Part shown: positions 3,593 through 63,648 of the stretch, in pieces
Layout of the letters: each line of letters begins with the position of its first letter
How positions within the stretch are numbered: the stretch's first letter is position 1
Assembly (NCBI GenBank): GCA_017525875.1
Contig: JAFXSG010000001.1
Location: 77,699 to 141,698 of the forward strand
Direction: 5' to 3'
From: Clostridia bacterium
Lineage (GTDB): Bacteria > Bacillota > Clostridia > Christensenellales > CAG-138
DNA length: 64,000 nucleotides
Program-made: the position numbers and the translations under genes
The notes under the pieces: generated by a model
Databases searched by the model: none
Seen by the model: only the letters and a program-made list of their open reading frames with translations
Told to the model about the DNA's origin: nothing

Positions 3593-3593
3593 G

Positions 3594-46195: not shown

Positions 46196-46229
46196 AAACC
46201 TCTCTTGCCTTGGCAGACAAAAGAGGTTT
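46196..46229 (-). terminator. Hairpin downstream of the recombinase
   Basis: AAACCTCT(c)TTG...CAAAAGAGGTTT inverted repeat. Confidence 0.6.
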
Positions 46230-46232
46230 CTT

Positions 46233-47738
46233 CTATGGTGGAACAGTATCATTCAACGCTGAACATGTGCCGCAGTCAGCCTCTTCACTGTTTTCAAAAG
46301 CTTTTTCGATGTCGTCAAGGGGGATATCCTTTTCCCTCTGCGGTGAAGTACTCGCATTGACGATCAGCGTGAAATGATCGTCGTACAGGTAAACCGCATG
46401 AACGAAAATGTTGATTATCGCCCTGCGCTTCTCAATGTCCAGCAGCGGCATGGTGCGGATGTAATCAAGGTATGCCATGACCTGCGGCTCCGAAAGATAC
46501 ACCTTGCGATTGAGCTCAGCCGCGAGCTGTTTTTCGAGCTCCGCTTTTTCCGCTCTGCGCTGTTCAAGGCGCTCGGTAAGCATATCGACCGATTGACCGG
46601 TTTCGATCATCCTCCAAAGGTTGTCGATCGCGGTTTCTGCTTCGCGTATCGCCTTACGCAGGGATTTTACCGTAAGGCTGTCGGGATCCCTACCGCATTC
46701 CTCGGCGACTCGCTTTGCAATGAACGCGATGTTTTCATCCGTCAGCAGGCTGAGGCATGCGTCGATAACTCGGTCCTCGATCTTCTGTTTGCCGATAAGC
46801 TTCTTATCGCATTTCCCGCGGCGGGCTTTCTTGCAAACATAATACGGGTAGTATGCACCGGAACGGCTCGTACCGCCGTAACCCGTCATCATTTCCCTGC
46901 AGTGACCACAGAATAGTTTTGTCGTGAGCAGATACTCACCTTCGCCCCGCTTGCGTGCGGGAACATGCAGATTTTTGTCAAGCATAACCTGTACCCTTTC
47001 AAAAAGATCGTCGTTCAGAATCCGGGGCATACCGCCCGGCGTTTCCTTACCGTCATAGATGTAGATGCCGAGATAACGACGGTTTCGGAGCATCTTGCTG
47101 AGGCTGTTATAAGTAAAATCCTTCCCGAGGGAGGTCTTGACCTTGCGCCTCTGCAGGTCCTTTATTATCTCGGCCTTTGTCTGGCCTTGAGCGTATCGCT
47201 CGAATATCTCACGGACGATCGCAGCTTCCTCCTCATCGACGCGAAAGGTCTTATCGGGATTGACCTTGAAGCCCAACCCGGGGTTGGATCCGTTCGAGAT
47301 GCATTTCTGCGCGTTAATGCCCATACCCCTTCGGATCTTCAATGAGAGCTCGGCGGAGTAGTACTCCGCCATGCTCTCCAACACGCCTTCAACGAGTATT
47401 CCGGAGGGATCGTCGGCAATGTTCTCCTTCGCGGATATCACGCGAACGCCGTTTTTCTTCAGCTTTGCCTTGTTGATGGCACTGTCATAACGGTTCCTAG
47501 CAAAACGGTCGAGCTGATAGACGAGTATCGCCTCAAACGTATGCCTCTCCGAATCGGCGATCATACGCTGAAACTCTGCACGGTTGTCGGTGGTACCCGA
47601 AACTGCGCGGTCGATGTACTCGCCGATGACGGTATAGCCGTTGGCCTCTGCATACTCATAGCAGACCTTAAGCTGACCTTCGATCGACTGCTCCGTCTGG
47701 CTGTAGCTCGAAAAGCGGGCGTAGATGACTATGTTCAT
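46233..47738 (-). CDS. Large serine recombinase (resolvase + recombinase + Zn ribbon)
   Basis: YARFSS catalytic Ser, QLDRFARN, CGHC..YYVC Zn ribbon and coiled coil. Confidence 0.95.
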   Translation of the reverse strand: MNIVIYARFSSYSQTEQSIEGQLKVCYEYAEANGYTVIGEYIDRAVSGTTDNRAEFQRMIADSERHTFEAILVYQLDRFARNRYDSAINKAKLKKNGVRVISAKENIADDPSGILVEGVLESMAEYYSAELSLKIRRGMGINAQKCISNGSNPGLGFKVNPDKTFRVDEEEAAIVREIFERYAQGQTKAEIIKDLQRRKVKTSLGKDFTYNSLSKMLRNRRYLGIYIYDGKETPGGMPRILNDDLFERVQVMLDKNLHVPARKRGEGEYLLTTKLFCGHCREMMTGYGGTSRSGAYYPYYVCKKARRGKCDKKLIGKQKIEDRVIDACLSLLTDENIAFIAKRVAEECGRDPDSLTVKSLRKAIREAETAIDNLWRMIETGQSVDMLTERLEQRRAEKAELEKQLAAELNRKVYLSEPQVMAYLDYIRTMPLLDIEKRRAIINIFVHAVYLYDDHFTLIVNASTSPQREKDIPLDDIEKAFENSEEADCGTCSALNDTVPP

Positions 47739-47810
47739 ACGCGGCTCCTTTCTCTCGCTTTGCCGTTATGATAGCAGACGCCCGCAGCATAGTCGAATGT
47801 GCGGGCAGAA

Positions 47811-47969
47811 CTATTTTTGATATTCGGGATGTTCACGCAGCCATTCCTCATACCACAGCCTCCCTTCGTCGCTTTGAAAGAAAGCTTTGATATCCGGCGC
47901 TATGGCCTTGGCGAATTCTTCAAGCAGATTTTCTTCATACTCTATCTTTGTTTCTTCGTTTTCGGGCAT
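47811..47969 (-). CDS. 52-aa hypothetical protein (possible recombination directionality factor)
   Basis: Manual translation MPENEETKIEYEENLLEEFAKAIAPDIKAFFQSDEGRLWYEEWLREHPEYQK; lies between parB and the recombinase. Confidence 0.55.
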   Translation of the reverse strand: MPENEETKIEYEENLLEEFAKAIAPDIKAFFQSDEGRLWYEEWLREHPEYQK

Positions 47970-47971
47970 AT

Positions 47972-48834
47972 CTATCTCTCTTCATCTCTGATCCTCTGTA
48001 AGTGCTTTTTGTAAAACGCGCAAGCCTTGATTATGAATTCCTGTACCCGCTGAGGCTCGGCGTCGGGCAGGTATTTGCCTATGCTGCTCATGGGGATACT
48101 GACCTTCTCGCGCTGATTGGGCTTTTCTTCCGCCATGATCGCGGCGATCGTCTCCTCGTTGAGCTTCCCTTCGCCGCTGAGCTTCTTCAACCGGCAGGCC
48201 TGGGAAAGCGAAGGCGTCGCCAGCGTAACGCCGATCTCAGTGAAGAGCATTTCCTGTTCCTCCTGTGAAAGGAAGGAAAGCTCCACCGCGGGAGTGAACG
48301 CGATGCGCTCCTCGTCTACCATGCGGAGAAGCGGCGGGATGAGGTGCGTCAGGCGGATGTAGCGCTGGATCTGCGTATTGCTCTCGTTGACACTTTCAGC
48401 AACGATTGCCCGCGACAACTTCTGTCCAACTTGGACAGAAGTTAAATCGGTGCGTTCGCCTTGGTTTTTCAGCGCCTCAAGCTTCAACTTGTACGCAAAT
48501 GCTTTTTCGCTCGGGAGCAGACGTTCCCTGTGAAGATTGCTGTCCACGAGCATGATAACCGCTTCATCGCGGGTGACCGCTTTGATAACTGCCGGGAGCT
48601 CTGTCAGCCCCGCAAGCTTCGCCGCATGCAGACGGCGATGACCGGAGATCAGTTCATATTCACCCGGGCGGCCTTCAATGGGTCTTACGATGAGCGGGGA
48701 CATAATCCCATGCTCACCGATGCTTTCTACAAGAGCGCTCATCTCATTGTTATCGAGCACCTTGTAAGGGTGTCCCTTAAGGGACGGATATTGTTTGCCG
48801 GTATCATGACCGGCGTACTAATTGTGTATTGCAT
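47972..48834 (-). pseudogene. ParB/Spo0J-like protein with a 1-bp frameshift near the 5' end
   Basis: YELISGHRR and VDSNLHRE motifs plus HTH. The ATG at 48834 is out of frame by one base with the conserved (F)KGHPYKV segment. Confidence 0.75.
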
Positions 48835-48867
48835 ATTTGTTTCCTTTCAGTTTTTTTGATGAATAAT

Positions 48868-48891
48868 AGGAGCGCCCTTTCGGACGCTCCC
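48868..48891 (-). terminator. Hairpin between the relaxase and parB genes
   Basis: GGAGCG-ccctttcgga-CGCTCC. Confidence 0.5.
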
Positions 48892-48903
48892 GGTGAAATT
48901 GTG

Positions 48904-50190
48904 TTATCGTTCTTCTTCATAATACATCGGCTTACCGTCGATCATAGGTTCATCCTCGAACGCCGCCCGCATCTTCGGGATATCGGCCTTGATATCCTCG
49001 CAGATACGCAGCTCCCGGCGGACGAAGCGCAGCTGCTCTGTCAGCGCGGCGATCTCGGGGATCGGTCCGCCCGTGCGCCGCTGTTCCTTACGGAGCGCAT
49101 CGCGCCTTGCTTTCAGCTCGCTGTATTCTTTACTGCGCATTGCGGCGTGCGCGTCAAGCTGATCCTCATTGTCGATGCCGTATTTATCGAGCAGATCATG
49201 CTGTCTGATGTACCGTTTGAGCTTCCGTACCTCTTCGCGGTTCACCCGGTACACGACCTTTTTGCCCTTGCCGAGCCATCCCAGCACGTACATCCACGAA
49301 AGCACCAGCGCCCTGAAGCCGTGCTGCTTCTGATATGGCACGAAAGGCTTTTCAGCCTTCGGAACAAGTATCTCCGTCTGCCGCTCAAAGCTGTCCCAAA
49401 GCATTTCCTCGATATCGTCTTCGGTCATGCTCTGACCATCCTTTTTCAGACGCAGAGGACGTTTTCCTCCGGGAGGCAGGAAAGAAGGATACTTGCATCG
49501 ATGATCGACCGTATAGCCGATCTCCTGCATGAGGCGGTAAAAGTGCTGTACATCGATCGCCCTGTCAATACACTCCCTCATATCGAGCTCGAGCATATCC
49601 TTCATGGTGAGCTGACCGTCCTTGTGAGCCCGCCACTCCGCAAAGCTCAAGCCATGACTTCGGGGGTTCTCGATAACGTAAAGCCCGTGTTCGCGGCAGA
49701 GCTCATCCGATACTTCCCTTAATCGCTGATGATCCTTTTTATGGTTCTCGTACTTTCTTCCCGTTCGGAAGGAAACGGAATTGACCACAAAATGATTATG
49801 TACGTTCTTGGTATTGAGATGGGTGGTAACGAGCACTTCGTATTCATCACCCCACATGCGCCGTGCCGTTTCCATACCCAGTGCGTGAGCTTCCTCGGGA
49901 GAGACCTCTTTACCATAGAAGCTTTGAAACCCGTGATAACAGGTATTCCCTCCGAGCTTTCCGTATCGTTTCTTCGTCGCCGTCATCCATTCATACGTCT
50001 GCTGCCATGGGCAGTTGAGAGCGGATACGTACATGAGCTTATCCGTCTTGCCGGGATCGGAAGTATAGCGCAAGACCTTTTTGAGGTCATCGGTCATATC
50101 CTCGGGAGCTATGGTCTTCTCGGGATTGACGGCGTAATCGATGACCCTTGAGATACTGTCCTTTATCGGCCAGAAGCCGGTTATTGCCAT
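48904..50190 (-). CDS. MOBP-type relaxase/mobilization nuclease
   Basis: VIDYAVNPEKT, YHGFQSF and the 3H motif THLNTKNVHNHFVVNSVS. Confidence 0.9.
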   Translation of the reverse strand: MAITGFWPIKDSISRVIDYAVNPEKTIAPEDMTDDLKKVLRYTSDPGKTDKLMYVSALNCPWQQTYEWMTATKKRYGKLGGNTCYHGFQSFYGKEVSPEEAHALGMETARRMWGDEYEVLVTTHLNTKNVHNHFVVNSVSFRTGRKYENHKKDHQRLREVSDELCREHGLYVIENPRSHGLSFAEWRAHKDGQLTMKDMLELDMRECIDRAIDVQHFYRLMQEIGYTVDHRCKYPSFLPPGGKRPLRLKKDGQSMTEDDIEEMLWDSFERQTEILVPKAEKPFVPYQKQHGFRALVLSWMYVLGWLGKGKKVVYRVNREEVRKLKRYIRQHDLLDKYGIDNEDQLDAHAAMRSKEYSELKARRDALRKEQRRTGGPIPEIAALTEQLRFVRRELRICEDIKADIPKMRAAFEDEPMIDGKPMYYEEER

Positions 50191-50191
50191 A

Positions 50192-50470
50192 TCACATCCC
50201 CTCGCTTTCAAAGAAGGCGCGGCGGATATCCGTCAGCAGATCCAATACCGCTTTTTCCGCCTCAGGTGATAACCCTCCGTTTGTCAGCTCGGAGAGCCTT
50301 CCCGTGATATCGAAAATAGCATCGGTCGGAGCCCATCGCGGCTCGTATCCCAATGCTCTCTTTCTCACGTATTCGCTTATCGTCAGCCCGCACTTTGCGG
50401 CTTTCCGGCATATGGCGGTCTTCTCTGACTTTGTTACCCTCAGCTCCAGACGTTCCTTTTTCTCTTTCAT
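50192..50470 (-). CDS. MobC-like ribbon-helix-helix relaxosome protein
   Basis: LELRVTKSEK..KAAKCGLTISEYVRKRALGYEP; immediately upstream of the relaxase. Confidence 0.85.
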   Translation of the reverse strand: MKEKKERLELRVTKSEKTAICRKAAKCGLTISEYVRKRALGYEPRWAPTDAIFDITGRLSELTNGGLSPEAEKAVLDLLTDIRRAFFESEGM

Positions 50471-50494
50471 GGCGCCACCGCCTTTGCCGGGGTA

Positions 50495-50562
50495 TTAGGG
50501 GCATCCCCTAAAAAGACCGCCGTTCCCCGAATCGGCGGAGCGGAACTTGCCGTACAAGTTCC
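50495..50562. other. Putative oriT
   Basis: Inverted repeats TTAGGGG-cat-CCCCTAA (50495-50511) and GGAACTTG-ccgta-CAAGTTCC (50542-50562) just upstream of mobC. Confidence 0.6.
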
Positions 50563-50710
50563 CTGCTGGCTATCGTTTTTTACATGGATACCCGGTATGC
50601 CGACCGGCGGGGATAGGTGCTTCCGCCGGGCGTGGTTATTCGTGCTTCCATGTGGCGCCATCGGTCTATCGGACGCAGGCCTGATGGCGCCAAATATGGG
50701 CGGTTTGGCG

Positions 50711-51049
50711 TCACGTGAACATATCGAGCGTTTCAAGTACATTTCGATCATTCTCCTGTCTCTCCTCATCGGTCATTTCCGCGGTAGGCGTGAATGTGGG
50801 TGCGGCCTCACGCGGGGCGAGATCGAGCTCCCGTATTTCCTCGCGGAACAATGCCCTAACGTCTTCAAGACTGAAATCGAATCTTCCCGGATACGAAAGG
50901 CGATCGAGATATTCCCCGATCGCCTTTATCGCAAACGCGCTCATCGATCCGTGCTCTTGTCGGTCGATCTCATGCAGTGCTTCGTACACCTTCCGCTGAT
51001 TAGGATCCGAAAGGTCGAACCTTACGCTGATCCTGTGAGAGTCCTTCAT
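50711..51049 (-). CDS. ParR/StbB-like DNA-binding adaptor
   Basis: MKDSHRISVRFDL..SMSAFAIKAI; coupled to parM; acidic helical C-terminus. Confidence 0.6.
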   Translation of the reverse strand: MKDSHRISVRFDLSDPNQRKVYEALHEIDRQEHGSMSAFAIKAIGEYLDRLSYPGRFDFSLEDVRALFREEIRELDLAPREAAPTFTPTAEMTDEERQENDRNVLETLDMFT

Positions 51050-51969
51050 ACGCCCTGCTCCGCTTTCAGCTGCAGCCCAGCGAGGTATTCGTAACCCTTT
51101 GCCGCAGCGCGGATATCGTCTATGAACCGCACGCGGCTGCCCTTCGTGCGATAGAAGTTTTTCACAAGACACCCGCCGCCTCCCGTGACTATGAGGTCCA
51201 TCGTGCTCTCGTCGTACCCATACTCGCGCAGCCTGCGGAATATGCCGCCGACGTATTCCTCCGCGACCGAGCGGATGAGCATCAGATCGTCCTTTGGCAT
51301 ATCCGCCGTTCCGTTTATCAGCACACTGTCGATTATCGAGTCGTCGATCTCAGCACCGCGCGCACTCATCAGGGCCTCATGCACGGCAAGCGTGCATTGG
51401 TGGGTGCCGAACTTCTCCGTGAACATTCGCCCGAGCTGCGGTCTGCCGTCGATGATGCACAGAGTGTTCATTGTCCCGTTGCCGATGTCGACTACGACGT
51501 TCATGTCCTTCATCGACGGCGCGTACTCCGCGACGGCGGCATACCCCTGCGGGTAGATCCTCGCCCCGAGTATGCGGATGTGATAATCGACCTTGCGGAA
51601 GGTGAAGCTTACCTCCGCGTTCCGCGTGAGGTATGCGGCGAATTCCGCCTTCTGTCCCGTGGTCCATGTGAGCGGGAGCCCGGCGGCGATGATAACGTCC
51701 GCTTCGGTCAGCCCTTCGTCCGCAAGCTCCATCGCGATCCCCGCCAGCGTGAGCAGGTAATAATCCTCGTCGCTCTGCTTTTTCGGCACGAATTCCTTGT
51801 GCCCCTCGCCGATGACGTAGTACCTCCCGCCGTACACGAGCATGTCGCCCGTGAACAGCGGCTCGTGATCGTACCCCGCGATACCCGCCTTGAAGATGTG
51901 GTTCGCGGTCTTGATGTTCCCGTAACCGTGGTCGACGCCGATGATGACGGCGTCATTGATTCTTTTCAT
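51046..51969 (-). CDS. ParM/StbA actin-like partition ATPase
   Basis: GVDHGYGNIK, AGLP, YPQGYAA, VDIGNGT and TGGG motifs. Confidence 0.9.
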   Translation of the reverse strand: MKRINDAVIIGVDHGYGNIKTANHIFKAGIAGYDHEPLFTGDMLVYGGRYYVIGEGHKEFVPKKQSDEDYYLLTLAGIAMELADEGLTEADVIIAAGLPLTWTTGQKAEFAAYLTRNAEVSFTFRKVDYHIRILGARIYPQGYAAVAEYAPSMKDMNVVVDIGNGTMNTLCIIDGRPQLGRMFTEKFGTHQCTLAVHEALMSARGAEIDDSIIDSVLINGTADMPKDDLMLIRSVAEEYVGGIFRRLREYGYDESTMDLIVTGGGGCLVKNFYRTKGSRVRFIDDIRAAAKGYEYLAGLQLKAEQGV

Positions 51970-52080
51970 TTTCTGCTACTTTCTCCTTATAGTTTATTTC
52001 CCCATTACGCCTGGGATGGGCGGTCCTTTGAGTTCTCTTCCCGCATTACTGCGGTGCGAAACGTTTTTCGGATCACACTG

Positions 52081-52239
52081 TCACTTCCCTTCCGCGTTTG
52101 CCGCGATCGGTTCGACCGGCTCATTCAGGATACGGTCCATGTCCCATTTATCAGCCAGATAATTGATGACGTCATGCACGTACTTCGCGCGCAGGCATTC
52201 CGATCGCATGATCTCTTTTGTCAGCTTCGGCTTCTTCAT
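52081..52239 (-). CDS. 52-aa hypothetical protein
   Basis: Manual translation MKKPKLTKEIMRSECLRAKYVHDVINYLADKWDMDRILNEPVEPIAANAEGK; strong RBS GGAAAGGAG. Confidence 0.55.
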   Translation of the reverse strand: MKKPKLTKEIMRSECLRAKYVHDVINYLADKWDMDRILNEPVEPIAANAEGK

Positions 52240-52313
52240 TTTTGCTCCTTTCCGCCTCTACGGAGGCATGTTATTTGATAAAAACTGGGGGTAGTTATTA
52301 AATAACAAAACAG

Positions 52314-52342
52314 TTGATTCCGTAGCCTTAAAGTGGTACAAT
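52314..52342 (+). promoter_or_regulatory. Sigma-A-type promoter of the polymerase-like gene
   Basis: TTGATT(52314)-17 bp-TACAAT(52337) with TG extension. This implies the real start is ATG 52360 or GTG 52372. Confidence 0.6.
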
Positions 52343-52359
52343 TATTCGAAAACCGAACG

Positions 52360-55300
52360 ATGGAGAAGACCGTGAAGCTCGAAAGATTCAAGATATTCCA
52401 AATACCGGCGAGAAACATAATTGCCGCTGCCCGCAAAAAAGGCGAGGGGTACAGTTTCGAATTCGATCCGTATGATGATTCAAGTGAATACCTTGTAGAG
52501 AAAACATATCAGGATGACTGCCCGATGTTTTATCAGGCAAAGGCCGTTCTGCAGGAGCTTGGGATAGATATGCCCTTTGGTGAAGACTGCCTTTCCGAAA
52601 CGTTTATCTATATAGACTTCTCAGGCATATTCGACAGGAAGCCCGTTGGAAGAGTAAAGGAACAGCAGGAGATCGCCGCACACATGTTCCGTGAAGAAGG
52701 CATTGAGATCTATAAGCGTCAGGGCTCCTGCAGATATGTCGCTTTCGAACGGTCGGCGAGCATGAGCCGCAATAACGTGCTTGCGTTCGTGCGCGAGGAA
52801 GTGTTCGAACCGCTCCGCAAGCGGATGATGCTGGGAATGGATATAGGTCTGTGTCAGCTTTCGAAGCTGTATGCATATAACGGTCTCATGTTCACTAACG
52901 GCTTCCGCTGTCTTGACTGCAGCAGCCTTTCGGATGACAGCATCATAGTGATCGACAACCCGAAGAGCATAGTCAGGGATGCGGATATCATCACCGTTGA
53001 GGATGACGGCACGGATGCTCCGGTGCGCAAATACAGCCGAGTCGAAAAGACCGCCGATATCGAAGTGCTCGAATTCGACGGCGAGGGTATAGTGTCAAAA
53101 GAGTTTGCTTCAAGGCTTGCATGGAGCGGCGAGCATCATTCGTTCCAGATACGTCTGCCTTACATCAAGGGAGTCGTGCATGAGGTGGATATCAAAAAGC
53201 TGTTTGCCGAATTGAAGGTCCCCGTCATTCGCGATATCTGGGGAAAAGAGCATGACGTACGCAAGGTGGATCTTATAATAACGAAGAGCATGTTCAAGGG
53301 GTTCGGATGGATGACGGAGAACGGGCTTTCATGGCGCGAGTATCTGGCAAGATGCGGAGAATACGGCCACGGGCTGTATGTATCCGGTATGGATAAGAGC
53401 AGTATGCAGGATACGACGGAGCTGAATTATCAGTTCCTGAACACACTTGCGATAGATCGCGAGCTGTTCCGCCCGGCCGATCTTCCTTCGGGCTGGGAAA
53501 GCTCTCCCGCGAACGACGAAAGGCAGTGGCTCACCAAGACCACCGAGGAACGGTACTGGTCCTATATTGCCGATACCGATTTCCGCAGGAAGCACTGTAT
53601 CGATGAATTGGAGGATGCCGAAGGTGCGCCGTCGCAAAGACGGAAAACGCTCCTGCAGGCAGCGATAAAGAACCCGCTCCTGCTCGAAGAACCGATCCTT
53701 GCAAGGGAGTTTGAGAAAAAGGCGGAAAGCATCCGCAACGACTATGCGTTGGGGATGCTTCTTGTCGCGGGAGACAGCCGCTATCTTTCCGACGATCTCA
53801 TGCGGCTCCTGGGCTATATCGTGAAAAGCTCTGTCGGGGAAGGCAAAGCCTTTAGCCTGCTGGAACAGGAGTTCCTGCAGGGAAACGAGATGTACGCACC
53901 TCTCCCCGGGTATAAGGAACAGGATATCTATACGCTCCTTCGCAGCCCGCATATCGCAAGAAACGAAGAAGCGCTTGCCGTGCCGCTCTCCGACGTCGGC
54001 AGGCTGCGGAAGAAATACCTGTCGCATCTGTCGTATGTGCTGATGGTAGATTCACGTTCGCTCATTCCGGAGCGCCTGGGCGGTGCGGATTACGACGGCG
54101 ATATGATAAAGACGATAGCCGATCCCATAGTCAACGGCTGCGTATTCCACGGCTATGAGGCCTCCGGCTCTCTGCCCGTATTGAAGATACCCGCCGCCGA
54201 ACCGCTTATCTCCGATGCCAACGACTGGCAGGCAAGGCTCGATTGCGTCAGGAGCACCTTTTCTTCCCGCGTAGGGCAGATAAGCAACGCTGCGCTGCGA
54301 AGGGGCATCGTCGCATATGACGAGAACAGCGACAGCGAAGAGCGTGAATTCGCGCGCATGGACACGGAAGTGCTCGCTATCCTGACCGGGCTTGAGATCG
54401 ACTCCGCCAAGAGCGGCATTAAGCCGGATCTTTCCGAATACCTCGAAAATCGCAAGGGAAAGAAAAGTCTTTTCCTCCGATACAAAAACATCGTTGACGA
54501 CGCCGAGGATCGTAAATGGTATGAGGCCACAACGCTTGAGCGCATCAAGAACTATATCGGTTCCGTGAAATGGGATAAGGTCAGTTCCGATCTTGAGCGT
54601 CTGCCGTACTACGCGTATATGCTCGAAAAGGGAACGCCAAAGCACGAGACCAAACCCGCTCCTGCGGATAAGCTTTTCGTTTTCGCCCGGGATCCGGATT
54701 GGAGGGATACCGTCGATCCTCACACAATGGAGCGAACCGAGGCTATCATATCGGCATATCGCGAAGCGCTGAGCCGTATCCGCTACATAAAACACCTTCC
54801 CAAAGACAGGGGGCGCAGGTCCGATATCGAGCAAATACTGTATTCCCGCGGGCAGGAGAACGAATACAGCGTTGACGAGCTGTACGCGCTGTTCGACTTC
54901 ACCGCACCGGCCACTGTGCGAAAAGCGAGGGCGAAGCTTTCCGAAATGAAATGGCATCTGCTCCCAAAGGAAGAAAGAGAGCCTGCGCTTTATGACTTTA
55001 ACATACATGCACTGCTCCGGAAGGCCGAGCTGTTCTGTGATTTCAGCTGCAGCGGCTACAGGGTGCTCGGCGATCTGATCTGTGACGTGGATGATATTAA
55101 CCGCAAAAACGATATTGCAAAACACATCGTCCGCAAGGGCGACGGCAGCGATATCAGGAGCCTGCTTATCGGAGTCAAACTGCACGGGAATTATGAAGAA
55201 AGGATAACCCTGAACTGTGTAAACCTCATAGCTCCTCCATATAGAGACGCGGAGACGCTTGATCAGGACAAAGTGCTCAAATGTGTCGAAGCCTTGGGCG

Positions 55301-55392
55301 AAAGGGAATTCGCGCTAAAGGTCCTTCCGGCAGCGGTCATGCGGAACATATCGGAACCCGTTCCCGAGAAACGCGGGAGGAGAAGGAAATGA
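52360..55392 (+). CDS. Single-subunit double-psi-barrel RNA polymerase-like protein (eukaryotic RdRP/phage YonO-like)
   Basis: Ordered motifs FDGEGIVS, FQIRLPYIKG, LLRSPHI, LGGADYDGD (54088-54102), VGQISN and IDSAKSG. Confidence 0.85.
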   Translation: MEKTVKLERFKIFQIPARNIIAAARKKGEGYSFEFDPYDDSSEYLVEKTYQDDCPMFYQAKAVLQELGIDMPFGEDCLSETFIYIDFSGIFDRKPVGRVKEQQEIAAHMFREEGIEIYKRQGSCRYVAFERSASMSRNNVLAFVREEVFEPLRKRMMLGMDIGLCQLSKLYAYNGLMFTNGFRCLDCSSLSDDSIIVIDNPKSIVRDADIITVEDDGTDAPVRKYSRVEKTADIEVLEFDGEGIVSKEFASRLAWSGEHHSFQIRLPYIKGVVHEVDIKKLFAELKVPVIRDIWGKEHDVRKVDLIITKSMFKGFGWMTENGLSWREYLARCGEYGHGLYVSGMDKSSMQDTTELNYQFLNTLAIDRELFRPADLPSGWESSPANDERQWLTKTTEERYWSYIADTDFRRKHCIDELEDAEGAPSQRRKTLLQAAIKNPLLLEEPILAREFEKKAESIRNDYALGMLLVAGDSRYLSDDLMRLLGYIVKSSVGEGKAFSLLEQEFLQGNEMYAPLPGYKEQDIYTLLRSPHIARNEEALAVPLSDVGRLRKKYLSHLSYVLMVDSRSLIPERLGGADYDGDMIKTIADPIVNGCVFHGYEASGSLPVLKIPAAEPLISDANDWQARLDCVRSTFSSRVGQISNAALRRGIVAYDENSDSEEREFARMDTEVLAILTGLEIDSAKSGIKPDLSEYLENRKGKKSLFLRYKNIVDDAEDRKWYEATTLERIKNYIGSVKWDKVSSDLERLPYYAYMLEKGTPKHETKPAPADKLFVFARDPDWRDTVDPHTMERTEAIISAYREALSRIRYIKHLPKDRGRRSDIEQILYSRGQENEYSVDELYALFDFTAPATVRKARAKLSEMKWHLLPKEEREPALYDFNIHALLRKAELFCDFSCSGYRVLGDLICDVDDINRKNDIAKHIVRKGDGSDIRSLLIGVKLHGNYEERITLNCVNLIAPPYRDAETLDQDKVLKCVEALGEREFALKVLPAAVMRNISEPVPEKRGRRRK

Positions 55393-56240
55393 CGAACGAA
55401 TGGAAGGAATTCAAAGCCTACACCGGCAAGCCGGTCTATAGGTCGTCCTCGAAAAAGGACAGGACTTTTCTCGGCAGATTCACTATCGAAATGATGTGTG
55501 AGTTTACCGGCTTCAAGCGTATCCTCACGACAATCGCCCGAGGCTATCTTTTCCATGCGAAGGACGGGAGCCTTCTGCCGGTAGATCCGCGCGATAGGCT
55601 TGACTATGCGCTGAACGCTATTAAGGCATGGTGCAGTGTACCGGAAAGAAGCAAAAGCTTCGTCCCGCCCGTGGACTTTCGGGAGCTGGCCGATATCTTT
55701 CCGGAGCTTGTGGATAAGAACGGTAACGGCTGGTATTACCGCCATGCAAAGAAGGTAATGGACTATGCGAAAAAGAACCCCGGCATAGTGCACAGCTCCA
55801 TCGTGAAAAAGTGCGAGGGCATGCGCCGGGGGTTCACAAAGAAATGGCAGAAGGAAGTCCGCGGTCTTCAGGTGCCGATATTCGCGCTCAACACCAAAGC
55901 CGGCTGGAAACTGCGCTTTGACGATATCCTCGCCGATGCGCTTGAGGCAGGACCGCTGCGCATGGAGGAATACGAGCTTCCGCAGCACGTTTCCGATATG
56001 CTTTCCATACTCTGCCCGGAGGATGTGCCCATGGACGTCCTAAAGGACATTGCCGCATTCTATCTTGCCAACCGCCGCGAGGATACCGATTGGGTCGTCC
56101 TTCCTGTCGCCAATTTCGAAGCCTACTATGGCGCCACGAACTTCAGCAAGCTTTACCTAAAAAAGATCCCCGAAACGATACTCGTTCGGGAATCTCGGGG
56201 GCATGTGTGCAGGGTGAAGATGAAGTTGTTCTGCAAGTAA
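55389..56240 (+). CDS. 283-aa hypothetical protein translationally coupled to the polymerase-like gene
   Basis: ATGA overlap at 55389-55392; basic protein; no recognised motif. Confidence 0.75.
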   Translation: MTNEWKEFKAYTGKPVYRSSSKKDRTFLGRFTIEMMCEFTGFKRILTTIARGYLFHAKDGSLLPVDPRDRLDYALNAIKAWCSVPERSKSFVPPVDFRELADIFPELVDKNGNGWYYRHAKKVMDYAKKNPGIVHSSIVKKCEGMRRGFTKKWQKEVRGLQVPIFALNTKAGWKLRFDDILADALEAGPLRMEEYELPQHVSDMLSILCPEDVPMDVLKDIAAFYLANRREDTDWVVLPVANFEAYYGATNFSKLYLKKIPETILVRESRGHVCRVKMKLFCK

Positions 56241-56350: not shown

Positions 56351-56563
56351 ATGGCAGTCAGCTATAAAAAGCTATGGAAGCTTTTGATCGATAAGGATAT
56401 GAAGAAATGCGATCTCGAGCGCAAAGCCGGGATCACGCACTATGCCCTTGGCAAGCTTTCCAAAGGTAAGGACGTCTCAACGGAAGTCCTCGGGAAGATA
56501 TGCGAAACGCTGAATTGCACGATCGACGATATCATGGAATTCGTGCCGGAGGAAGAAAAATAA
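56351..56563 (+). CDS. Cro/C1 (Xre) HTH regulator
   Basis: MAVSYKKLWKLLIDK..KICETLNCTIDDIMEF pattern. Confidence 0.9.
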   Translation: MAVSYKKLWKLLIDKDMKKCDLERKAGITHYALGKLSKGKDVSTEVLGKICETLNCTIDDIMEFVPEEEK

Positions 56564-56666
56564 CGGCTTTCCGAGAGAAGAAAGCCGATCAGTCAGACTG
56601 AAATCGAACGGACAACATTTCCTTAGGAGGAAATTGTTGCTTCCATCTGTAAACGGAGGAAGCCCT

Positions 56667-59621
56667 ATGAGCAAAATTAGTGAAGAAACCACAAAAGGTT
56701 TAGTCGCAGATAAACTGAAAAACACTTTGGGATATCCGACTTCACAAAATGTGACAGTTTCCGGAATCACATGGTTTAAGGAAGATAGTTATAAGGGGAC
56801 AAGCTATAACTGGCTGGATAGTGTGTTTTCAAAAGCCACGAAGAAACAGACTCTTCAAAGCAAAGGCACCCCTGACTTCATTGTAACTAAAGAAGACTCA
56901 AGTGTAATTGTTGTTATAGAGTGCAAGGGAGACATTACCCATCATTCGAGTCTATCTGATTCTAATGCATTTAAGTATTCTGGATATGGAACTCCTGCAG
57001 AAACAGAAGCCTATGCTATTAACGGGGCCTTATGGTATGCAACGTTTTTAAATGACAGATATGATGTTATTGCAGTAGGGGTTTCCGGACAGATTGAGGT
57101 AGCATGTAGAGTTACATCTTTCGTTTTGCCACGCGGTGGGAAAATCGAAGACATTGAGCTGCTGGAAGATGATTATCTCTCTGGCGCACTCGTATCTATT
57201 TCGCAATACGAAAAAGATGTGGATGTAGTATTAGATCGATTTGCAGGAACAGAAGCAGCGATAAAGAAGGAACTAAGACGCTATACATTAACATGTGCGA
57301 ATTTCTTGCGTTCAAATGGTATTGAAGATAATTCAAAAGCTGGGTTTATCTCGGCTGTTATCCTTGGATTAACGAATCACGAATCAAAACTATATAAGGA
57401 TACAAAAGCGGCTATTGATGCCAAAAGAGCCTCAAAGAGTAAAAAACTGTTGTCTGATCCCCTCGGAAGGAATGCGGTCAAACTGCTTAAGGCATCACTC
57501 TATGGCGACGGAAATGAATATGACGAAGACTTTATTAAGGGAATATGGGACATTGACAGAATTCCCCGTGGCAAAAGAACTTCATTAAAAAAGTTTTATG
57601 ACAATCTTTTGTCAAAGGATGAACTATTGCATGCTCCAAAAGGCGATTATAAAGACTTTCCTGACGGCGTAACGGTCTTGTCTCGTTGCGTGTTTTCTCT
57701 ATACGAAAATGTAATCGAAGTTTTGGAGAAATACACAGGAATCGATGTTATGGGAGAATTCTACACAACATTTTTGCGCTTTACTAAAGGAAACGCAAAA
57801 GAGAAAGGGATTGTTTTAACTCCCAAACACATTACTGAGTTGTTCTGTGATATTGCCGAGTATTATTCTGACACAAAGTTTAATGAAAATACAAAAGTCA
57901 TTGATATATGCTGTGGAACGGGTGCGTTCCTTATTGCTGCACTTGCTCGCATGAAGAAAAACATATCTGGGCTGAAAATTAGTGAAGGCGCTAAGGCAGC
58001 AAAATATGAAGTGGCACAGAAAAGCAGCTTGATCGGTGTGGAAAAAGATCCGTCTATGTACGCCTTAGCATATGCCAATATGCGGTTTCATGGAGACGGA
58101 AAAGCCAATCTATTTAACTGCTCGTCACTTCTGATTGATTCTTATGCACCTGTTGATGATAGTGGGAAGACATATTTAGAGGATACTAAAGTGCCCCTGC
58201 ACGAGGCCTTAAAGAGCTTTGGCGATATAGATATTGCTATGATTAATCCGCCATACTCTCTAGATAAAAAAGATAACTCAGCTTCTCGTGAGTATCCAAT
58301 AATCCAGAAGAAAACGGAATTAGAAGACAAATTAAAAAGACTTAAGCAACTTCAAAGAGCATTGAAAAAGAAGGATCAAACGGAAGCTACACAGCAGGAA
58401 CTGATGAGGCTGGAGAAAGACATCCGGCTCATAGAAGCGGCGATAGTTAAACAGGACAACGAATTGGATGATAGTGGTTTCCGTGAAATCGTCATTTCAA
58501 AAGGACAAGATGAGCTGGATTTTGTTGCTTCGATGCTCCATTATCTCAAAAAGGGTGGCATTGGTATAGCTATTGTACCTATGTCATGTGCTGGGAGCAG
58601 TGGCACCTCGTTAAGAACATCTTTGTTAGAGCACCATACTTTACTAGCATGCATGACTATGCCCAGCAATCTTTTCTTTGATAGCCATGTAGGAGCAAAT
58701 ACATGCATCATGGTATTTAAAGCCCACGTACCGCACGATGAACAAAAATCAGTCTTTTTTGGTGTTTGGAATGATGATGGGTTTTCGGTTATACCGCATA
58801 ATGGACGGAAGGATACCGGAAAATGGTCTGCCATTCGTCAAGGGTGGATTGATCAACTTGATGGAATAGCTGAGCCAAACGAGACAATGTGGCTAAAGCA
58901 CAAAATGAACAGTAACGGCGAAGCACTTCCCGAAGCATATGTCAAAACTGACAACAAGAAAATAACGGAAGAACTATTCAAAAATGTAGTTCGCAATTAT
59001 GCATTATATAAGTATATGGATTCAAAATCAGCGTTAGATATAAAAGATTCGCAGAAAATGCTTTGGCTACTTGATAACTATACTGATTTTGAAAAACGGT
59101 ATTCTCCATCATTAATTGAAAAACAACTTGCCTTAACAGATAGGCCGTGGTCAGTATTTAAGTTTCAACGCATTATTGATGATATTCATAATGGAAAGTC
59201 TTATAATAACGTAGATCTAGTTGCGGCTGACATCGACGATTATATCCTATATATTACTCGTACAGAGCAAAACAATGGAGTATCGATGTGTGTCCAGGCA
59301 ATGGATTACTCCGGATTAGAGAAGGCAAATGCCATTACGATTGGCGATACTACTGCCACCATTTTCTTTCAAGATCATGATTTTCTTACTGGTCCACACA
59401 TGATAGTTGTTCGAGCCAATTGGATAAATGTGTATTCTGCCCTTTTCGTAATCACGCTACTAAATCAGGAAAAGTATAGATACCCTGTTTTTGGACGTGC
59501 ATTCACCAAGGACCTAATCGCTGAAACACAACTTTATTTGCCTGTCGACGCAGATGGGCATCCAGATTATGCATTTATGGAGGAATACATTAAGTCATTA
59601 CCTTTCAGCGTAAGAATTTGA
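56667..59621 (+). CDS. Fused restriction-modification enzyme (endonuclease + N6-adenine MTase + TRD; type IIG/BcgI-like)
   Basis: GTPDFIV..IECK nuclease motif, GEFY..LTPKHI, DICCGTGAFL (motif I), NPPY (motif IV) and a C-terminal S-subunit-like region; AT-rich. Confidence 0.85.
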   Translation: MSKISEETTKGLVADKLKNTLGYPTSQNVTVSGITWFKEDSYKGTSYNWLDSVFSKATKKQTLQSKGTPDFIVTKEDSSVIVVIECKGDITHHSSLSDSNAFKYSGYGTPAETEAYAINGALWYATFLNDRYDVIAVGVSGQIEVACRVTSFVLPRGGKIEDIELLEDDYLSGALVSISQYEKDVDVVLDRFAGTEAAIKKELRRYTLTCANFLRSNGIEDNSKAGFISAVILGLTNHESKLYKDTKAAIDAKRASKSKKLLSDPLGRNAVKLLKASLYGDGNEYDEDFIKGIWDIDRIPRGKRTSLKKFYDNLLSKDELLHAPKGDYKDFPDGVTVLSRCVFSLYENVIEVLEKYTGIDVMGEFYTTFLRFTKGNAKEKGIVLTPKHITELFCDIAEYYSDTKFNENTKVIDICCGTGAFLIAALARMKKNISGLKISEGAKAAKYEVAQKSSLIGVEKDPSMYALAYANMRFHGDGKANLFNCSSLLIDSYAPVDDSGKTYLEDTKVPLHEALKSFGDIDIAMINPPYSLDKKDNSASREYPIIQKKTELEDKLKRLKQLQRALKKKDQTEATQQELMRLEKDIRLIEAAIVKQDNELDDSGFREIVISKGQDELDFVASMLHYLKKGGIGIAIVPMSCAGSSGTSLRTSLLEHHTLLACMTMPSNLFFDSHVGANTCIMVFKAHVPHDEQKSVFFGVWNDDGFSVIPHNGRKDTGKWSAIRQGWIDQLDGIAEPNETMWLKHKMNSNGEALPEAYVKTDNKKITEELFKNVVRNYALYKYMDSKSALDIKDSQKMLWLLDNYTDFEKRYSPSLIEKQLALTDRPWSVFKFQRIIDDIHNGKSYNNVDLVAADIDDYILYITRTEQNNGVSMCVQAMDYSGLEKANAITIGDTTATIFFQDHDFLTGPHMIVVRANWINVYSALFVITLLNQEKYRYPVFGRAFTKDLIAETQLYLPVDADGHPDYAFMEEYIKSLPFSVRI

Positions 59622-59652
59622 GAAAGAAGCAAATCAGGAAGGGACTCAGATT

Positions 59653-60729
59653 ATGAACAATACCAAACTCCAATCTGCCATATCAGCGTTCGTCAAAAAC
59701 AAAAAGGCCAACGCTGCCTACTATGATGATAACTGGACCGAACGCAAAGAACGCAAAGCCTATTATCAGTCGTTTACGCGGGACAAGCTCCTTGCTATGA
59801 CCGAGGAGGACTTCTTCGAGTACATGAGCAGGCTTTGGTCCATGGTCATGTGGGGCAACAAACGTTTTGTTGTGGACAAGCTGATTGCCGACAACGGCTT
59901 TGAAGCGCTGAAAAAGCATCTCGCGGAATTGCTGTATGGTTCGGCTTCGTTTGAAAAGCGGTGGAATACCTTCTTGAAAGAAGTGAAGGGCATGGGGCCG
60001 TCCACGATCAGCGAGCTTCTTACCTATACCAACCCGAACGAATACATCCTTTTCAACAAGACGACGATCCTCTGCTATACATACCTCGATATTCCGGATA
60101 TGCCCAAATACAACTATCAGTACACGGGGAAGAAGTATCTGGAGGCTTGTGCGATCGCGAAGGATATTTCGGCTGCGCTCAAGGCTGCCGGGGTGGATGA
60201 CTGCGATCTGCTGGCGGTCGATTACTTCCTGTGGGATGAGGTTCTGCCGCTTGCCGAAAAGAAGGAACCCGGAGATCAGGTCCCCGTGACCGGCACGCCG
60301 AAAACAGCCAGTGATTCCAAATCGCTGCACGAAGAGATAAAGGAAAAACTCGTTGCCATAGGTGAGCTGCTGGGGTTTGAAAGCCGATCAGAGGTGAAGA
60401 TCACCACCGGTGCGGTCGTCGATGCCGTCTGGGAAGCAAAGATAGGCAATATGGGAAAGGCGATATATGTGTTTGAAGTCCAGTCCAAGGGCTCCATCGA
60501 CAGCCTGATTCTGAATCTCAAAAAGGCACAGAGCAACGCCGCCGTTCAGGCCGTTGTCGCCGTGGCAGACGAAGAACAGCTTGCGAAGATCATTCGCGAG
60601 AGCGCCGGCGTCATCGACGAGAAATCCCTTCGCACATGGAATAGCGAAGACGTCCTCGCCGTTTATGACGCCCTGGTGCGCGCACATGAGTCGATCAATA
60701 AACTGGCACTTGTGCCGGAGAGTTTTTAA
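59653..60729 (+). CDS. Hypothetical protein with a putative C-terminal PD-(D/E)XK nuclease domain
   Basis: HEEIKEKL..G..LGF, VDAVW..VFEVQ motifs; N-terminal KGMGPSTISELL HhH-like segment. Confidence 0.55.
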   Translation: MNNTKLQSAISAFVKNKKANAAYYDDNWTERKERKAYYQSFTRDKLLAMTEEDFFEYMSRLWSMVMWGNKRFVVDKLIADNGFEALKKHLAELLYGSASFEKRWNTFLKEVKGMGPSTISELLTYTNPNEYILFNKTTILCYTYLDIPDMPKYNYQYTGKKYLEACAIAKDISAALKAAGVDDCDLLAVDYFLWDEVLPLAEKKEPGDQVPVTGTPKTASDSKSLHEEIKEKLVAIGELLGFESRSEVKITTGAVVDAVWEAKIGNMGKAIYVFEVQSKGSIDSLILNLKKAQSNAAVQAVVAVADEEQLAKIIRESAGVIDEKSLRTWNSEDVLAVYDALVRAHESINKLALVPESF

Positions 60730-60757
60730 TAGTATTCTCAATTGGAAAAGAAGACAT

Positions 60758-61711
60758 ATGAGCAGCTTATTCATCGCAGGAAATGGGTTTGATATAGCAC
60801 ATGGTATTCCTTCAAAATATAGCGATTTTAGAGCACGTTTAATTGATGCATATCCCGAAGCGCTTAAGCTGCGAGACGAAAAAGTGTTTTTAGAAGACTT
60901 CAATGATATTGATCCTTATGAGTTTGCTGCGGAAATCTTGTTAAATACAATGGATAAAGCTGCAGGAGAAAACTGGTGGAATTTTGAAGAAGCATTGGCT
61001 TATGTTAGCTTCGACAACAAATTGCCAAGGCCCAATCACAAAGAAAACGAAACAGAAGACGAAGACCGAGAGCTAATGACCCATTACCTTCTTTACATGG
61101 ATAAGCTCACCAATGGTTTTATTAACTGCTCAAAGATATGGCAAGTTTTTTTTCGCCTTTGGATTAAAGAACTGCAAAGACGCATCGATAATAACGAATT
61201 CAGAAAGAGAGATGCATTAAACACTATTATTTCTGACAATGATATTCAGTTCTTAACCTTCAACTATACAAAAACCCTGCAAAAGCTTTATGGAGTGAAA
61301 AAAGTTATTCATATTCATAATCGAGTGGGGCAGAACTTGATTTTTGGTCATGGAAAAGAGAACGCAATGTATTCTCCGCTTGTTGACAGTATAGAAGATG
61401 GACCTTGCATCGGTTCTTCCTTCCTTGACGATATGATAATGTCGTTTAAAAAAGATACCTCATCAGCACTAAATAAATACTATGATTTCTTTAAAAAGCT
61501 TAATGATAATGTTGACAACGTCTATTCGTATGGATTTGGTTACGGAAGTGTTGACAGTGTATATATAAAGAGAATTCTGAAGATGATTTCACCTGATGCC
61601 ACTTGGTTCTTTACAAAATATGAATCGCTAGATGCAAGAGCGCTGAAAATAAAAAAGATCAAGCTGAGACGGTATGGCTTTAAGGGCAAATTTGACTTGT
61701 TCGAGGGATAA
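60758..61711 (+). CDS. AbiH-family (SIR2-like) abortive infection protein
   Basis: LFIAGNGFDIAHG..SKYSDF, TFNYT, HIH, IFGHG and YGFGYGSVD motifs. Confidence 0.85.
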   Translation: MSSLFIAGNGFDIAHGIPSKYSDFRARLIDAYPEALKLRDEKVFLEDFNDIDPYEFAAEILLNTMDKAAGENWWNFEEALAYVSFDNKLPRPNHKENETEDEDRELMTHYLLYMDKLTNGFINCSKIWQVFFRLWIKELQRRIDNNEFRKRDALNTIISDNDIQFLTFNYTKTLQKLYGVKKVIHIHNRVGQNLIFGHGKENAMYSPLVDSIEDGPCIGSSFLDDMIMSFKKDTSSALNKYYDFFKKLNDNVDNVYSYGFGYGSVDSVYIKRILKMISPDATWFFTKYESLDARALKIKKIKLRRYGFKGKFDLFEG

Positions 61712-61874
61712 TAATAGTTTTACAGTAAAGATAATCGCCGATAGGAATCTTTGAGATGTTGTGTCTTTTGTTAACTATTTCTGCGATCAATTGCCTGTTG
61801 AGACATCACTAATAACCTGCACTATTCACAGTGTTGCAATGCCAAAGTGATAATAGAGAGCAAGACTACAATAA

Positions 61875-63377: not shown

Positions 63378-63420
63378 TTTCAGCCCCCAATCTCTTCTTG
63401 CAACCTGCCAGAAAAAACTA

Positions 63421-63648
63421 TTAAATAGCACCGTACTTGTTGTGATTGATTCTGCCTACCAAATAATCCAGCGACACTCCATAAAGATCCGCAATACGGA
63501 TCAGGATCTCCAGTTTGGGTTCTCGCGTCATAAGTTCATAGTTTTGATAGGCCTTCTCGGTTATGTCGCAATATACTGCGACCTGCATCTGAGTAAGGCC
63601 CTTTTCTTTTCTGCACGTCTTAAGGCGCTCGGCTAAGATCTCTCGCAT
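63421..63648 (-). CDS. Xre-family HTH regulator
   Basis: RKEKGLTQ..YQNYE..REP..IADLYGVSLDYLVG. Confidence 0.9.
   Translation of the reverse strand: MREILAERLKTCRKEKGLTQMQVAVYCDITEKAYQNYELMTREPKLEILIRIADLYGVSLDYLVGRINHNKYGAI

Follow-up and report, generated by a model that had tools for sequence, protein, structure and literature searches.

An integrative mobilizable element family of gut and rumen Clostridia with a two-barrel RNA polymerase and a fixed partner protein in its core

A 64,000-nucleotide stretch of a Clostridia bacterium genome (GCA_017525875.1; the whole stretch is called the window in the following) carries on its right-hand side an integrated island, the backbone of which combines genes for site-specific recombination, mobilization and partition with an operon for a QDE-1/YonO-like RNA polymerase and a second protein, called the partner here. 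The comparison of related loci argues that this backbone is a distinct and widespread family of integrative mobilizable elements (IMEs) in gut and rumen Clostridia, the core of which is formed by polymerase and partner, usually together with ParMR, and the family has apparently not been described so far. With regard to the function of the pair, our preferred reading, to which we assign a probability of roughly one in three, is that the excised circle would be copied by rolling-circle replication started by the relaxase, that ParMR would segregate the copies, and that polymerase and partner would act as a site-specific primer maker.

The island genome is a draft assembly of 53 contigs with a completeness of 92%, and the island is spread over two of its contigs in two versions; the window's contig (C21) stops 6.9 kb past the window. 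Relatives of the polymerase were taken from a one-genome-per-species collection, in which 178 stretches encode such a protein; the best 80 of these yielded 78 loci, mostly from metagenome-assembled genomes of rumen and gut Clostridia. L-numbers denote the loci compared (L001 runs past the window, L088 is from contig C5), G-numbers genomes, C-numbers contigs of the island genome and X-numbers sequencing runs. Genes in the related loci are simple calls of the longest open reading frame (ORF), and counts of neighbouring genes take in only loci with enough flanking sequence (9.5 kb upstream for n = 21). The runs were examined as assembled contigs, and three of the four compared may come from the source sample. 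The Pfam scan of the window took in 59 ORFs; ORFs of less than 100 aa left of 46 kb lay outside it. The features of the backbone are the following.

46233..47738, minus strand: large serine recombinase (integrase), 501 aa; Resolvase 8e-28, Recombinase 4e-19, Zn_ribbon_recom 2e-9
47811..47969, minus strand: 52-aa ORF between ParB and recombinase; no family
47972..48760, minus strand: ParB-like protein; ParB_N and HTH_ParB, NCBIfam parB_part 87.6 bits, above cut-off
48904..50211, minus strand: relaxase with MobA/VirD2-like nuclease domain; Pfam PF03432, E 7e-38
50192..50470, minus strand: NikA-like relaxosome accessory protein; PF21983, E 2.5e-14; NCBIfam MbpA/MobA below cut-off
50471..50710, no strand: putative origin of transfer (oriT), 240-nt non-coding gap 5' of the nikA-like gene, with inverted repeats
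50711..51049, minus strand: ParR-like candidate adaptor, about 112 aa from Met42; start overlaps the ParM stop
51046..51969, minus strand: ParM-type actin-like ATPase; ALP_N, E 1.6e-11, 45 bits against a cut-off of 26.3
52081..52239, minus strand: 52-aa ORF, first gene of the leftward array; matches only L002-L005
52269..52307, plus strand: family-wide conserved cis-element; motif AAAAACTGGGGGTAGTTAT at 52280-52298, in the loop of a 13-bp inverted repeat
52314..52342, plus strand: sigma-A-type promoter of the polymerase operon; TTGATT-17-TACAAT, with TG before the -10 box
52360..55392 (ORF from 52333), plus strand: single-subunit two-barrel RNA polymerase (QDE-1/YonO-like), 1010 aa; Pfam RdRP PF05183
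55389..56240 (ORF from 55281), plus strand: partner protein, 283 aa; no family, conserved start MTNEW

A constant core with exchangeable modules

A first-pass annotation of this DNA had described a leftward gene array divergent from polymerase and partner. Pfam matches place the genes in just this arrangement, and the array is beyond chance, since its order recurs in dozens of species. The partner directly follows the polymerase in 54 of 55 loci, the exception (L075) having a truncated polymerase. ParM is encoded divergently from the polymerase and within 4.5 kb of it in 26 of 33 loci, and upstream a homologue of the PF03432 relaxase (18 of 21 loci), a serine recombinase (16/21) and ParB (15/21) are found. 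This gene order persists even where the polymerase is only 45% and the partner only 38% identical.

Other modules are exchanged around the pair: a tyrosine integrase takes the place of the recombinase in L049, L050, L067 and L076, and a MobA_MobL relaxase stands in for the PF03432 relaxase in L011, L021, L045 and L055. TnpV recurs on the far side in 13 sources. Constancy of the core amid exchange of the other modules is what a maintenance core would be expected to show. The suggestion that the element would define a new IME class is supported to the extent that the backbone is a distinct family with a polymerase-partner core and exchanged types of integrase and relaxase.

Within the leftward array, the recombinase yields weak, sub-threshold NCBIfam matches of the CcrB/XisF type and is 97-98% identical in L003 and L005. 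The 52-aa ORF adjacent to it has tblastn matches in five related loci (L003, L005, L021, L034 and L041; 50-97%), and the place of the other 52-aa ORF, at the head of the array, is taken by a Cys_rich_VLP protein in 8 other loci. The protein first labelled MobC is indeed a relaxosome accessory protein; it matches the NikA-like PF21983 and not Pfam MobC. At the place named for an oriT, a 240-nt gap with inverted repeats was found (50650-50662 / 50683-50695, plus shorter hairpins), and no nick site was located in it; a 100-aa ORF over the gap matches only four near-identical loci, and the gap is a putative oriT. As for the ORF described as parR-like, its overlap with the ParM stop and the presence of homologues (cluster c6) after ParM in 24 of 52 sources speak for this description, which a family match in Pfam, NCBIfam or PHROG does not accompany; its N-terminus may form a ribbon-helix-helix. 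ParM itself has, in addition to ALP_N, an MreB-like_C match below the cut-off. No tandem or direct repeat array of the parC type was found in 44-64 kb, which leaves room for a non-repetitive centromere.

A type IV secretion system (T4SS) family was not found among the ORFs scanned in the window, L001 and L088, the gap between C21 and C5 being unseen. Elsewhere in the genome, genes for VirD4/TraG-type coupling proteins lie at C8:157320-158516 (190 bits) and C37:140336-141412 (140 bits) as possible helpers, and a borderline VirB4-like match lies on C19.

Polymerase, partner and the conserved motif

The polymerase matches Pfam RdRP PF05183 with 31 bits (cut-off 23.8). More than 1,700 homologues were scored, and PF05183 was present in 119 of 120 among the matches listed. 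The sequence ADYDGD occupies residues 576-581, and D577, D579, D581, R528 and P530 (R528-S-P530) are invariant in 31 sequences. These residues agree with the signature of the two-barrel superfamily, a DxDGD loop and an R-x-P of the second barrel, as given in the accessible text of PMC2919709. Judged from its residues, the catalytic centre looks intact and the enzyme is probably active. The AlphaFold model (pLDDT 79.4) has QDE-1 and plant RDR2 as its top Foldseek matches over the whole length (E 8e-13 to 1e-8, probability 1.0), followed by Thermus phage polymerases and a crAss-like phage polymerase. The best structural matches extend over about 1000 aligned columns at E 8e-13 and share the Pfam RdRP domain and DYDGD; however, identity is only 12-14%, and QDE-1 and RDR2 are eukaryotic silencing enzymes, whereas the protein described here belongs to a bacterial mobile element. 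Phage relatives, including those of the SPbeta type, are 21-26% identical. The likeness to YonO, likewise a single-chain two-barrel polymerase, is seen in residues 134-543, which are about 24% identical to SPbeta-type phage proteins, and in a match to PHROG 8308 (E 2e-43); the element polymerase differs in being about 150-200 aa longer, in lying beside ParMR in a mobilizable element and in having a dedicated partner.

The start of the partner overlaps the polymerase stop, i.e. the two genes are translationally coupled. The partner is modelled with high confidence (pLDDT 90.9) as an N-terminal helical domain and a C-terminal winged helix (residues 196-283), the latter resembling many DNA-binding proteins equally well (Z 5-6), among them transcription factors, DnaD, ORC and RepA/RepE. 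Matches to RepA, RepE and RctB (Z 4.7-5.1) are no better than those to unrelated winged helices, and these model-based likenesses prove nothing about the role of the partner. For the N-terminal 190 residues, which the wide structural search barely covered, there was no match. The partner had no sequence match in the Protein Data Bank (PDB) under E 0.016, no Foldseek match under E 0.18 and only Atlas matches below 0.85. Neither partner nor polymerase matched a Rep protein in Pfam, NCBIfam or PHROG, nor was there a PDB sequence match for the two under E 0.01; the possibility raised at first that the partner is a known Rep therefore finds no profile match, and the fold match to Rep proteins is not discriminating. 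PADLOC assigned neither of the two to a defence family.

A profile search with the partner retrieved 726 cluster representatives, with no fusion among the best 150. In a fecal contig (L112), a remote homologue of the partner (hhalign probability 96.8%) comes after a 26%-identical polymerase, which suggests that the pairing of polymerase and partner is old. Gene overlap and co-occurrence are the evidence for a possible physical association of the two proteins. The L112 contig (MT835651.1, filed as an unverified bacteriophage contig) encodes a 1158-aa RdRP-like polymerase, a Mutator-family transposase, a PARG-like enzyme and a PD-(D/E)XK AAA-ATPase, and no phage structural gene was found among the 15 scanned ORFs of at least 90 aa. 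Gp4 of phage TR-TP1 showed no likeness to the partner, which was not found beside the polymerase homologue of this phage.

Upstream of the polymerase lies a DNA motif that is common to the family. The fuller family consensus is AAAAAGTGGGGGCAGTTAT, of which the version in the window is AAAAACTGGGGGTAGTTAT, present there in a single copy. A 10-nt core was found within positions -150 to -11 of the polymerase, on the polymerase strand, in 57 of 59 loci compared with 0.3% of shuffled sequences. A few bases downstream of it, 52 of 56 distinct upstream regions have a sigma-A-type promoter with a 17-nt spacer in the same place. Ten ParM loci that have no polymerase, two distant polymerase loci and the remainder of the island do not contain the motif; its presence in polymerase loci and absence from polymerase-less ParM loci indicates that it goes with the polymerase-partner pair and not with ParM. 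The motif region of the window folds as DNA with -6.8 kcal/mol (z -3.4), and stems of at least 7 bp lie beside 24% of 63 distinct motif copies, compared with 4.7% of shuffles; at this fraction, a universal hairpin at the motif was ruled out.

Some relatives contain extra exact copies of the motif, all on the same strand; these copies precede inserted genes or follow the partner at a distance of about 90 nt. In four of eight loci (L009, L014, L018 and L021) the copy behind the partner faces convergent genes, so that it is there not simply the promoter of a downstream gene. The motif also recurs ahead of plus-strand operons in L010, L046, L049-L051 and L055. Three of these copies (L010:5680, L046:8109 and L055:16129) head a cargo operon for a 126-aa protein, a response regulator, a histidine kinase and an ABC/FtsX transporter, which suggests that cargo can come under the same control element as the polymerase. 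In L053 (about 2000-3950), L057 and L058, a 600-aa serine recombinase and a TnpW-family protein are encoded between ParM and polymerase; from its gene content, this insert looks like a small nested element in the divergent region that did not displace the motif.

These observations bear on an alternative to priming, in which polymerase and partner would constitute an element-specific, YonO-like transcription system and replication would be left to the relaxase and host enzymes alone. Host RNA polymerase would express the pair from the sigma-A promoter, and the partner would aim the polymerase at the motif, for transcription of the leftward excision, partition and mobilization array or of the operon and the cargo to its right. 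There is a precedent, since YonO of the Bacillus prophage SPbeta acts on phage late genes as a DNA-dependent transcriptase (Forrest et al. 2017, PMC5467207, by its accessible text), and the phage relatives of the polymerase adjoin lysis and packaging genes. The position of the motif at promoters and its recurrence before plus-strand operons fit a transcriptase, as does the partner's C-terminal winged helix, which many transcription factors have. The same is true of the leftward array, for which no sigma-A-like promoter was detected in the divergent region of the window or of its closest relatives, and weak, variable ones were seen in 30 of 56 regions. However, the single motif copy of the window would serve one or two transcription units at most, the copy behind the partner faces convergent genes in half of the eight loci, a small element that spares its host has no obvious need for a transcriptase of its own, and it is the maintenance genes that stay linked to the pair, while transfer and integration modules are swapped. 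We rate transcription of the element by the pair as nearly as likely as priming.

Proposed replication and maintenance of the excised element

The presence of ParM implies an extrachromosomal stage in which the element is segregated. In agreement with the first-pass annotation, no family of Rep, DnaA/DnaC, primase or T4SS proteins was found among the 59 scanned ORFs of the window. It had also been considered that a Rep might lie beyond 64 kb: no Rep family was found among the 32 ORFs of the rest of the island, i.e. in the 6.9 kb past the window and in 9.9 kb on C5, and the sole replication-like gene seen there, encoding an AAA_25 protein, is not conserved (2 of 52 sources).

Of 150 other genomes of the order, 9 encode homologues of ParM (28-54% identity), and 10 such loci served for comparison. 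None of them has the polymerase. The ParM neighbours include AAA_25 (L110, L111), DUF3854 (L109), DUF6674, DUF4314 and ParB, and in L105 and L106 a DUF3991/Toprim_2 protein and SSB are encoded near ParM; AAA_25 is also found next to ParM in L070. The closest ParM locus, L102, has small ORFs without a family, a DUF4368-type serine recombinase and a MobA_MobL relaxase. Thus, ParM appears to be common in integrative elements of the order, in which a canonical Rep is generally missing and genes of the helicase or primase type are often nearby. The idea that relatives exchange the polymerase operon for a canonical rep gene is not borne out by these 10 loci; an exchange for helicase- or primase-type genes would agree with them better.

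Rolling-circle replication started by a relaxase is known from ICEBs1. In the excised form of R391, replication depends on relaxase and oriT, and ParM/ParR stabilise the element (Carraro et al. 2015, PMC4489591, by the part of the paper available). With R391 and ICEBs1 as precedents, relaxase-started rolling-circle replication together with ParM-type partition would be the default upkeep while the element is excised, and no Rep would be needed. According to the same partial source, the SXT/R391 integrative and conjugative elements (ICEs) with srpMRC are likewise integrated and have a relaxase, an oriT and ParM-type partition in combination with no plasmid Rep; they differ from the family described here in being self-transmissible elements of Gammaproteobacteria with a tyrosine integrase and a T4SS, whereas here the hosts are Clostridia, the integrase is a serine recombinase and no T4SS was found. 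The core of two-barrel polymerase and partner is present here and not in SXT/R391.

From gene content, conservation, host-type expression signals, one family-specific DNA site and an apparently intact catalytic centre we infer the following course of events. The recombinase would excise the element, the circle would be copied, like SXT/R391 and ICEBs1, by rolling-circle replication that the relaxase begins at oriT, ParM and ParR would segregate the copies, and helper T4SSs encoded elsewhere would carry the nicked strand into new cells. A single strand, which has to be primed, results from rolling-circle copying as well as from conjugative entry. The partner would aim the polymerase at a specific site, and the RNA made there would prime DNA synthesis on the element, most plausibly synthesis of the complementary strand on the displaced or transferred single strand and less plausibly replication from a transcription-primed theta origin. 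The priming module would be the element's own and independent of the host, and it would take over the function of a primase or a single-strand origin and not that of a Rep homologue.

That RNA polymerase and not primase supplies a site-specific primer is well known from ColE1 RNA II, from the primary origin of phage T7 and from the single-strand origins of M13 and of rolling-circle plasmids. These transcription-primed and single-strand origins are a working analogy, in that they use the host polymerase or a phage T7-type polymerase, and to our knowledge there is no two-barrel single-chain polymerase with a specificity protein of its own that primes replication. Structures of QDE-1 on DNA templates with an RNA primer exist, to judge from their PDB titles (7y7s, 7y7r, 7y7t). 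A role of RdRP-like enzymes of selfish elements as primases has been proposed in generic terms by Iyer and Aravind, as cited in the accessible text of PMC3417536. A more far-reaching version, in which polymerase, partner and motif are a self-contained, host-independent priming system or origin that makes up, together with relaxase and ParMR, a replicon without Rep or primase, appears rather unlikely to us.

Several points weigh against a priming function. Excision, a circle and extra copies are supported by neither experiment nor reads. Circular overlap at the contig ends was found in none of the 24 loci that comprise whole contigs, and the contig depths of polymerase and flank, which are not copy numbers, were 24.8 and 24.7 in run X1, 7.81 and 5.97 in X2, and 6.5-7.1 and 7.32 in X3. 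Among plasmids, 11 of 72,556 PLSDB records match the polymerase, all with less than 27% identity (26% for the best) and less than 50% coverage. Iterons, tandem repeats or a clear AT-rich unwinding region were not found in 44-64 kb. If the host primes replication driven by the relaxase, a dedicated polymerase is unnecessary. Among bacterial relatives only YonO has been characterised, and it is a late-gene transcriptase according to the accessible text of PMC5467207; phage relatives have lysis and packaging neighbours. The motif always lies just upstream of a host-type -35/-10 promoter (the 52 of 56 regions mentioned above), and this position, together with the cargo operons that it heads in some relatives, would suit a regulator or a promoter element equally well. 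Finally, the winged helix of the partner singles out no Rep protein, and 7 of 33 loci contain polymerase and partner with no ParM nearby.

The loci without ParM would also be compatible with an element that has no useful autonomous replication, in which ParM, ParR and ParB are relics or serve only a short-lived circle and the pair makes regulatory or conflict RNA or something similar. In three runs, contigs that cross the left junction represent the integrated form, the cargo is rich in defence genes (type IIG restriction-modification, AbiH, AbiE), and eukaryotic relatives of the polymerase work in RNA silencing, as stated in the accessible part of PMC3417536. Nevertheless, the genes for ParM, the ParR-like protein and the polymerase have remained intact and are conserved in many species, at identities down to 45%, and this speaks for selection on function; furthermore, the pair matches no defence family of PADLOC and is located in the constant core and not in the variable defence cargo. 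We consider a non-replicative element improbable.

Island edges, cargo and biological meaning

The first 46 kb of the window are ordinary chromosome, with genes for an Mnh antiporter, a 2464-aa surface protein and polysaccharide synthesis. The 2464-aa ORF (11245-18639, minus strand) has Listeria-Bacteroides repeat domains, adjoins an ECF sigma factor gene and is unrelated to the element. The features at the edge and to the right of the backbone are as follows.

46196..46232, minus strand: terminator-like chromosomal hairpin 3' of the NUDIX-gene fragment; scored as a hairpin
56351..64000, no strand: variable cargo by Pfam and PADLOC; GC content drops to 0.40-0.43
56634-59621 (restriction-modification enzyme): HTH_26 regulator, then type IIG restriction-modification enzyme (PADLOC REase_MTase_IIG)
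59653-60729: 358-aa ORF, no family; assembly branch point at 60730
Rest of the cargo: AbiH (PADLOC), 518-aa ORF with HTH_3 regulator, start of a YpsA-like gene

The homology of the NUDIX region to genome G021 (81% over 304 nt) stops at 46231, where in G021 a tRNA follows directly, and identity with L005 (an element of another species, 91% identical) sets in at 46236; the left junction is thus at about 46231/46232. Contigs of runs X1-X3 span it, i.e. they represent the integrated form, and the stop codon of the serine recombinase lies 1-2 nt from the end of the chromosomal homology. Synteny is not kept in the relatives and the NUDIX flank is common only to G021, and no island-free site was found among them. 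Two loose ends of run contigs, at 46177 and 46196, had no match in the genome.

On the chromosomal side, a 75-aa ORF (45914-46141, minus strand) covers only positions 18-66 of the 134-position NUDIX profile and is followed by a GNAT gene; by this partial coverage it looks like a truncated or frameshifted gene. The last 37-90 nt before the island (46142-46232) have numerous matches in 16 of 40 related genomes and further ones on several contigs of the genome itself (C37, C11, C15 and C40), and may be a dispersed repeat or a common terminator.

The cargo begins directly behind the partner, since identity to relatives stops at 56223-56553, and it differs even between 90%-identical elements. Contigs of the runs have alternative continuations at 56267, 56553 and 60730. 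The last of these connects to the second contig of the island: C5:1-343 (L088:1-343) repeats the end of the 358-aa ORF (60388-60730) at 97% identity, after which the sequences diverge, and a contig of run X2 joins 60730 exactly to C5:344. Overlap and junction show that two cargo versions follow the 358-aa ORF, either in the sample or in the genome. The version on C5 contains DUF6119, an anti-sigma/ECF sigma pair, ABC transporter genes, DUF6034, TnpV and small ORFs, before tRNA-Ala and housekeeping genes. The right end of the closest relatives L003 and L004 matches C5:7701-8161 at 92%, and from the sequence the right end of the island can be bracketed on C5 between 8.8 and 9.8 kb, adjoining tRNA-Ala. 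The element is inserted between the terminator of the NUDIX gene and the tRNA-Ala gene. The stretch 52-70.9 kb contains no inverted match of at least 18/24 nt to the left end, and no att repeat was detected.

The version on C21 continues for the 6.9 kb past the window with YpsA-like, Metallophos, two GNAT and AbiEii/AbiEi genes, TnpV, a Mob_Pre (MobV) relaxase and a cut AAA_25 gene. The stretch L001:9865-14871 (65.9-70.9 kb in window coordinates) comprises AbiEii/AbiEi, a 110-aa ORF, TnpV, the Mob_Pre (MobV) relaxase and AAA_25, which the contig end interrupts. We read the MobV, TnpV and AAA_25 genes as a second, separate mobilizable module, because AAA_25 is accompanied by a relaxase of its own and by TnpV. 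This module resembles an Int-NikA-AAA_25-ParM-MobV element in another genome (L110).

Tn4451/Tn4453-type clostridial mobilizable transposons have a Mob_Pre (MobV) relaxase and lack ParM, ParB and polymerase. The island resembles them in the serine recombinase at one end, in the small TnpV proteins (TnpW in relatives) and in the lack of a T4SS; unlike in these transposons, Mob_Pre, AAA_25 and TnpV here lie in a separate module at 67.4-70.9 kb.

The second module is also an argument for a conventional initiator that was missed, in which case the polymerase would have nothing to do with maintenance. Such an initiator might be AAA_25 (69.7-70.9 kb), an unannotated ORF of the cargo or a gene that falls into the unassembled gap between C21 and C5. 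The AAA_25 protein, a RepA/DnaB-like ATPase encoded at the end of C21, has counterparts next to ParM in L110, L111 and L070; the island is distributed over two contigs with two paths after 60730, so that part of it may be unseen; and ORFs of 358, 518, 299, 267 and 199 aa have no family. However, AAA_25 is found in 2 of 52 sources and belongs here to the separate TnpV/MobV module, and the ORFs without a family are cargo and not conserved in the family. In addition, L003 and L004 share sequence through the DUF6034 gene, and no Rep family was found in the gene-cluster representatives of L004 and the homologous region of C5. A missed initiator seems very improbable to us, and relaxase-started copying with priming by polymerase and partner remains our preferred reading.

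In the literature, no paper was found that ties PF05183/YonO-like polymerases to IMEs, and among work on ICEs with ParM, relaxase replication and partition, studies of SXT/R391 were found and nothing with such a polymerase; the 'novel selfish elements' with these polymerases that Iyer and Aravind reportedly described in 2012 may overlap this finding. YonO-like proteins in Firmicute chromosomes were called enigmatic in 2010 (PMC2919709), and for those outside phages the accessible text of PMC5467207 gives an unknown role, possibly that of specific transcriptases. The family described here gives these enigmatic polymerases a defined and very common genetic home, with a fixed partner and a fixed DNA motif, which makes their function directly testable and the family a good test case for the role of such polymerases in bacteria.

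In gut and rumen communities the elements carry defence and transporter cargo. If the pair transcribes the element, the family would be the first known case of a mobile element other than a phage with a transcriptase of its own. If it primes replication, this would be a new way for integrative elements to persist and to cross host barriers in these communities, and, if the more far-reaching priming or origin reading is true, this would be the long-sought function of the chromosomal YonO-like polymerases of Firmicutes as well as a bacterial counterpart of transcription-primed replication.

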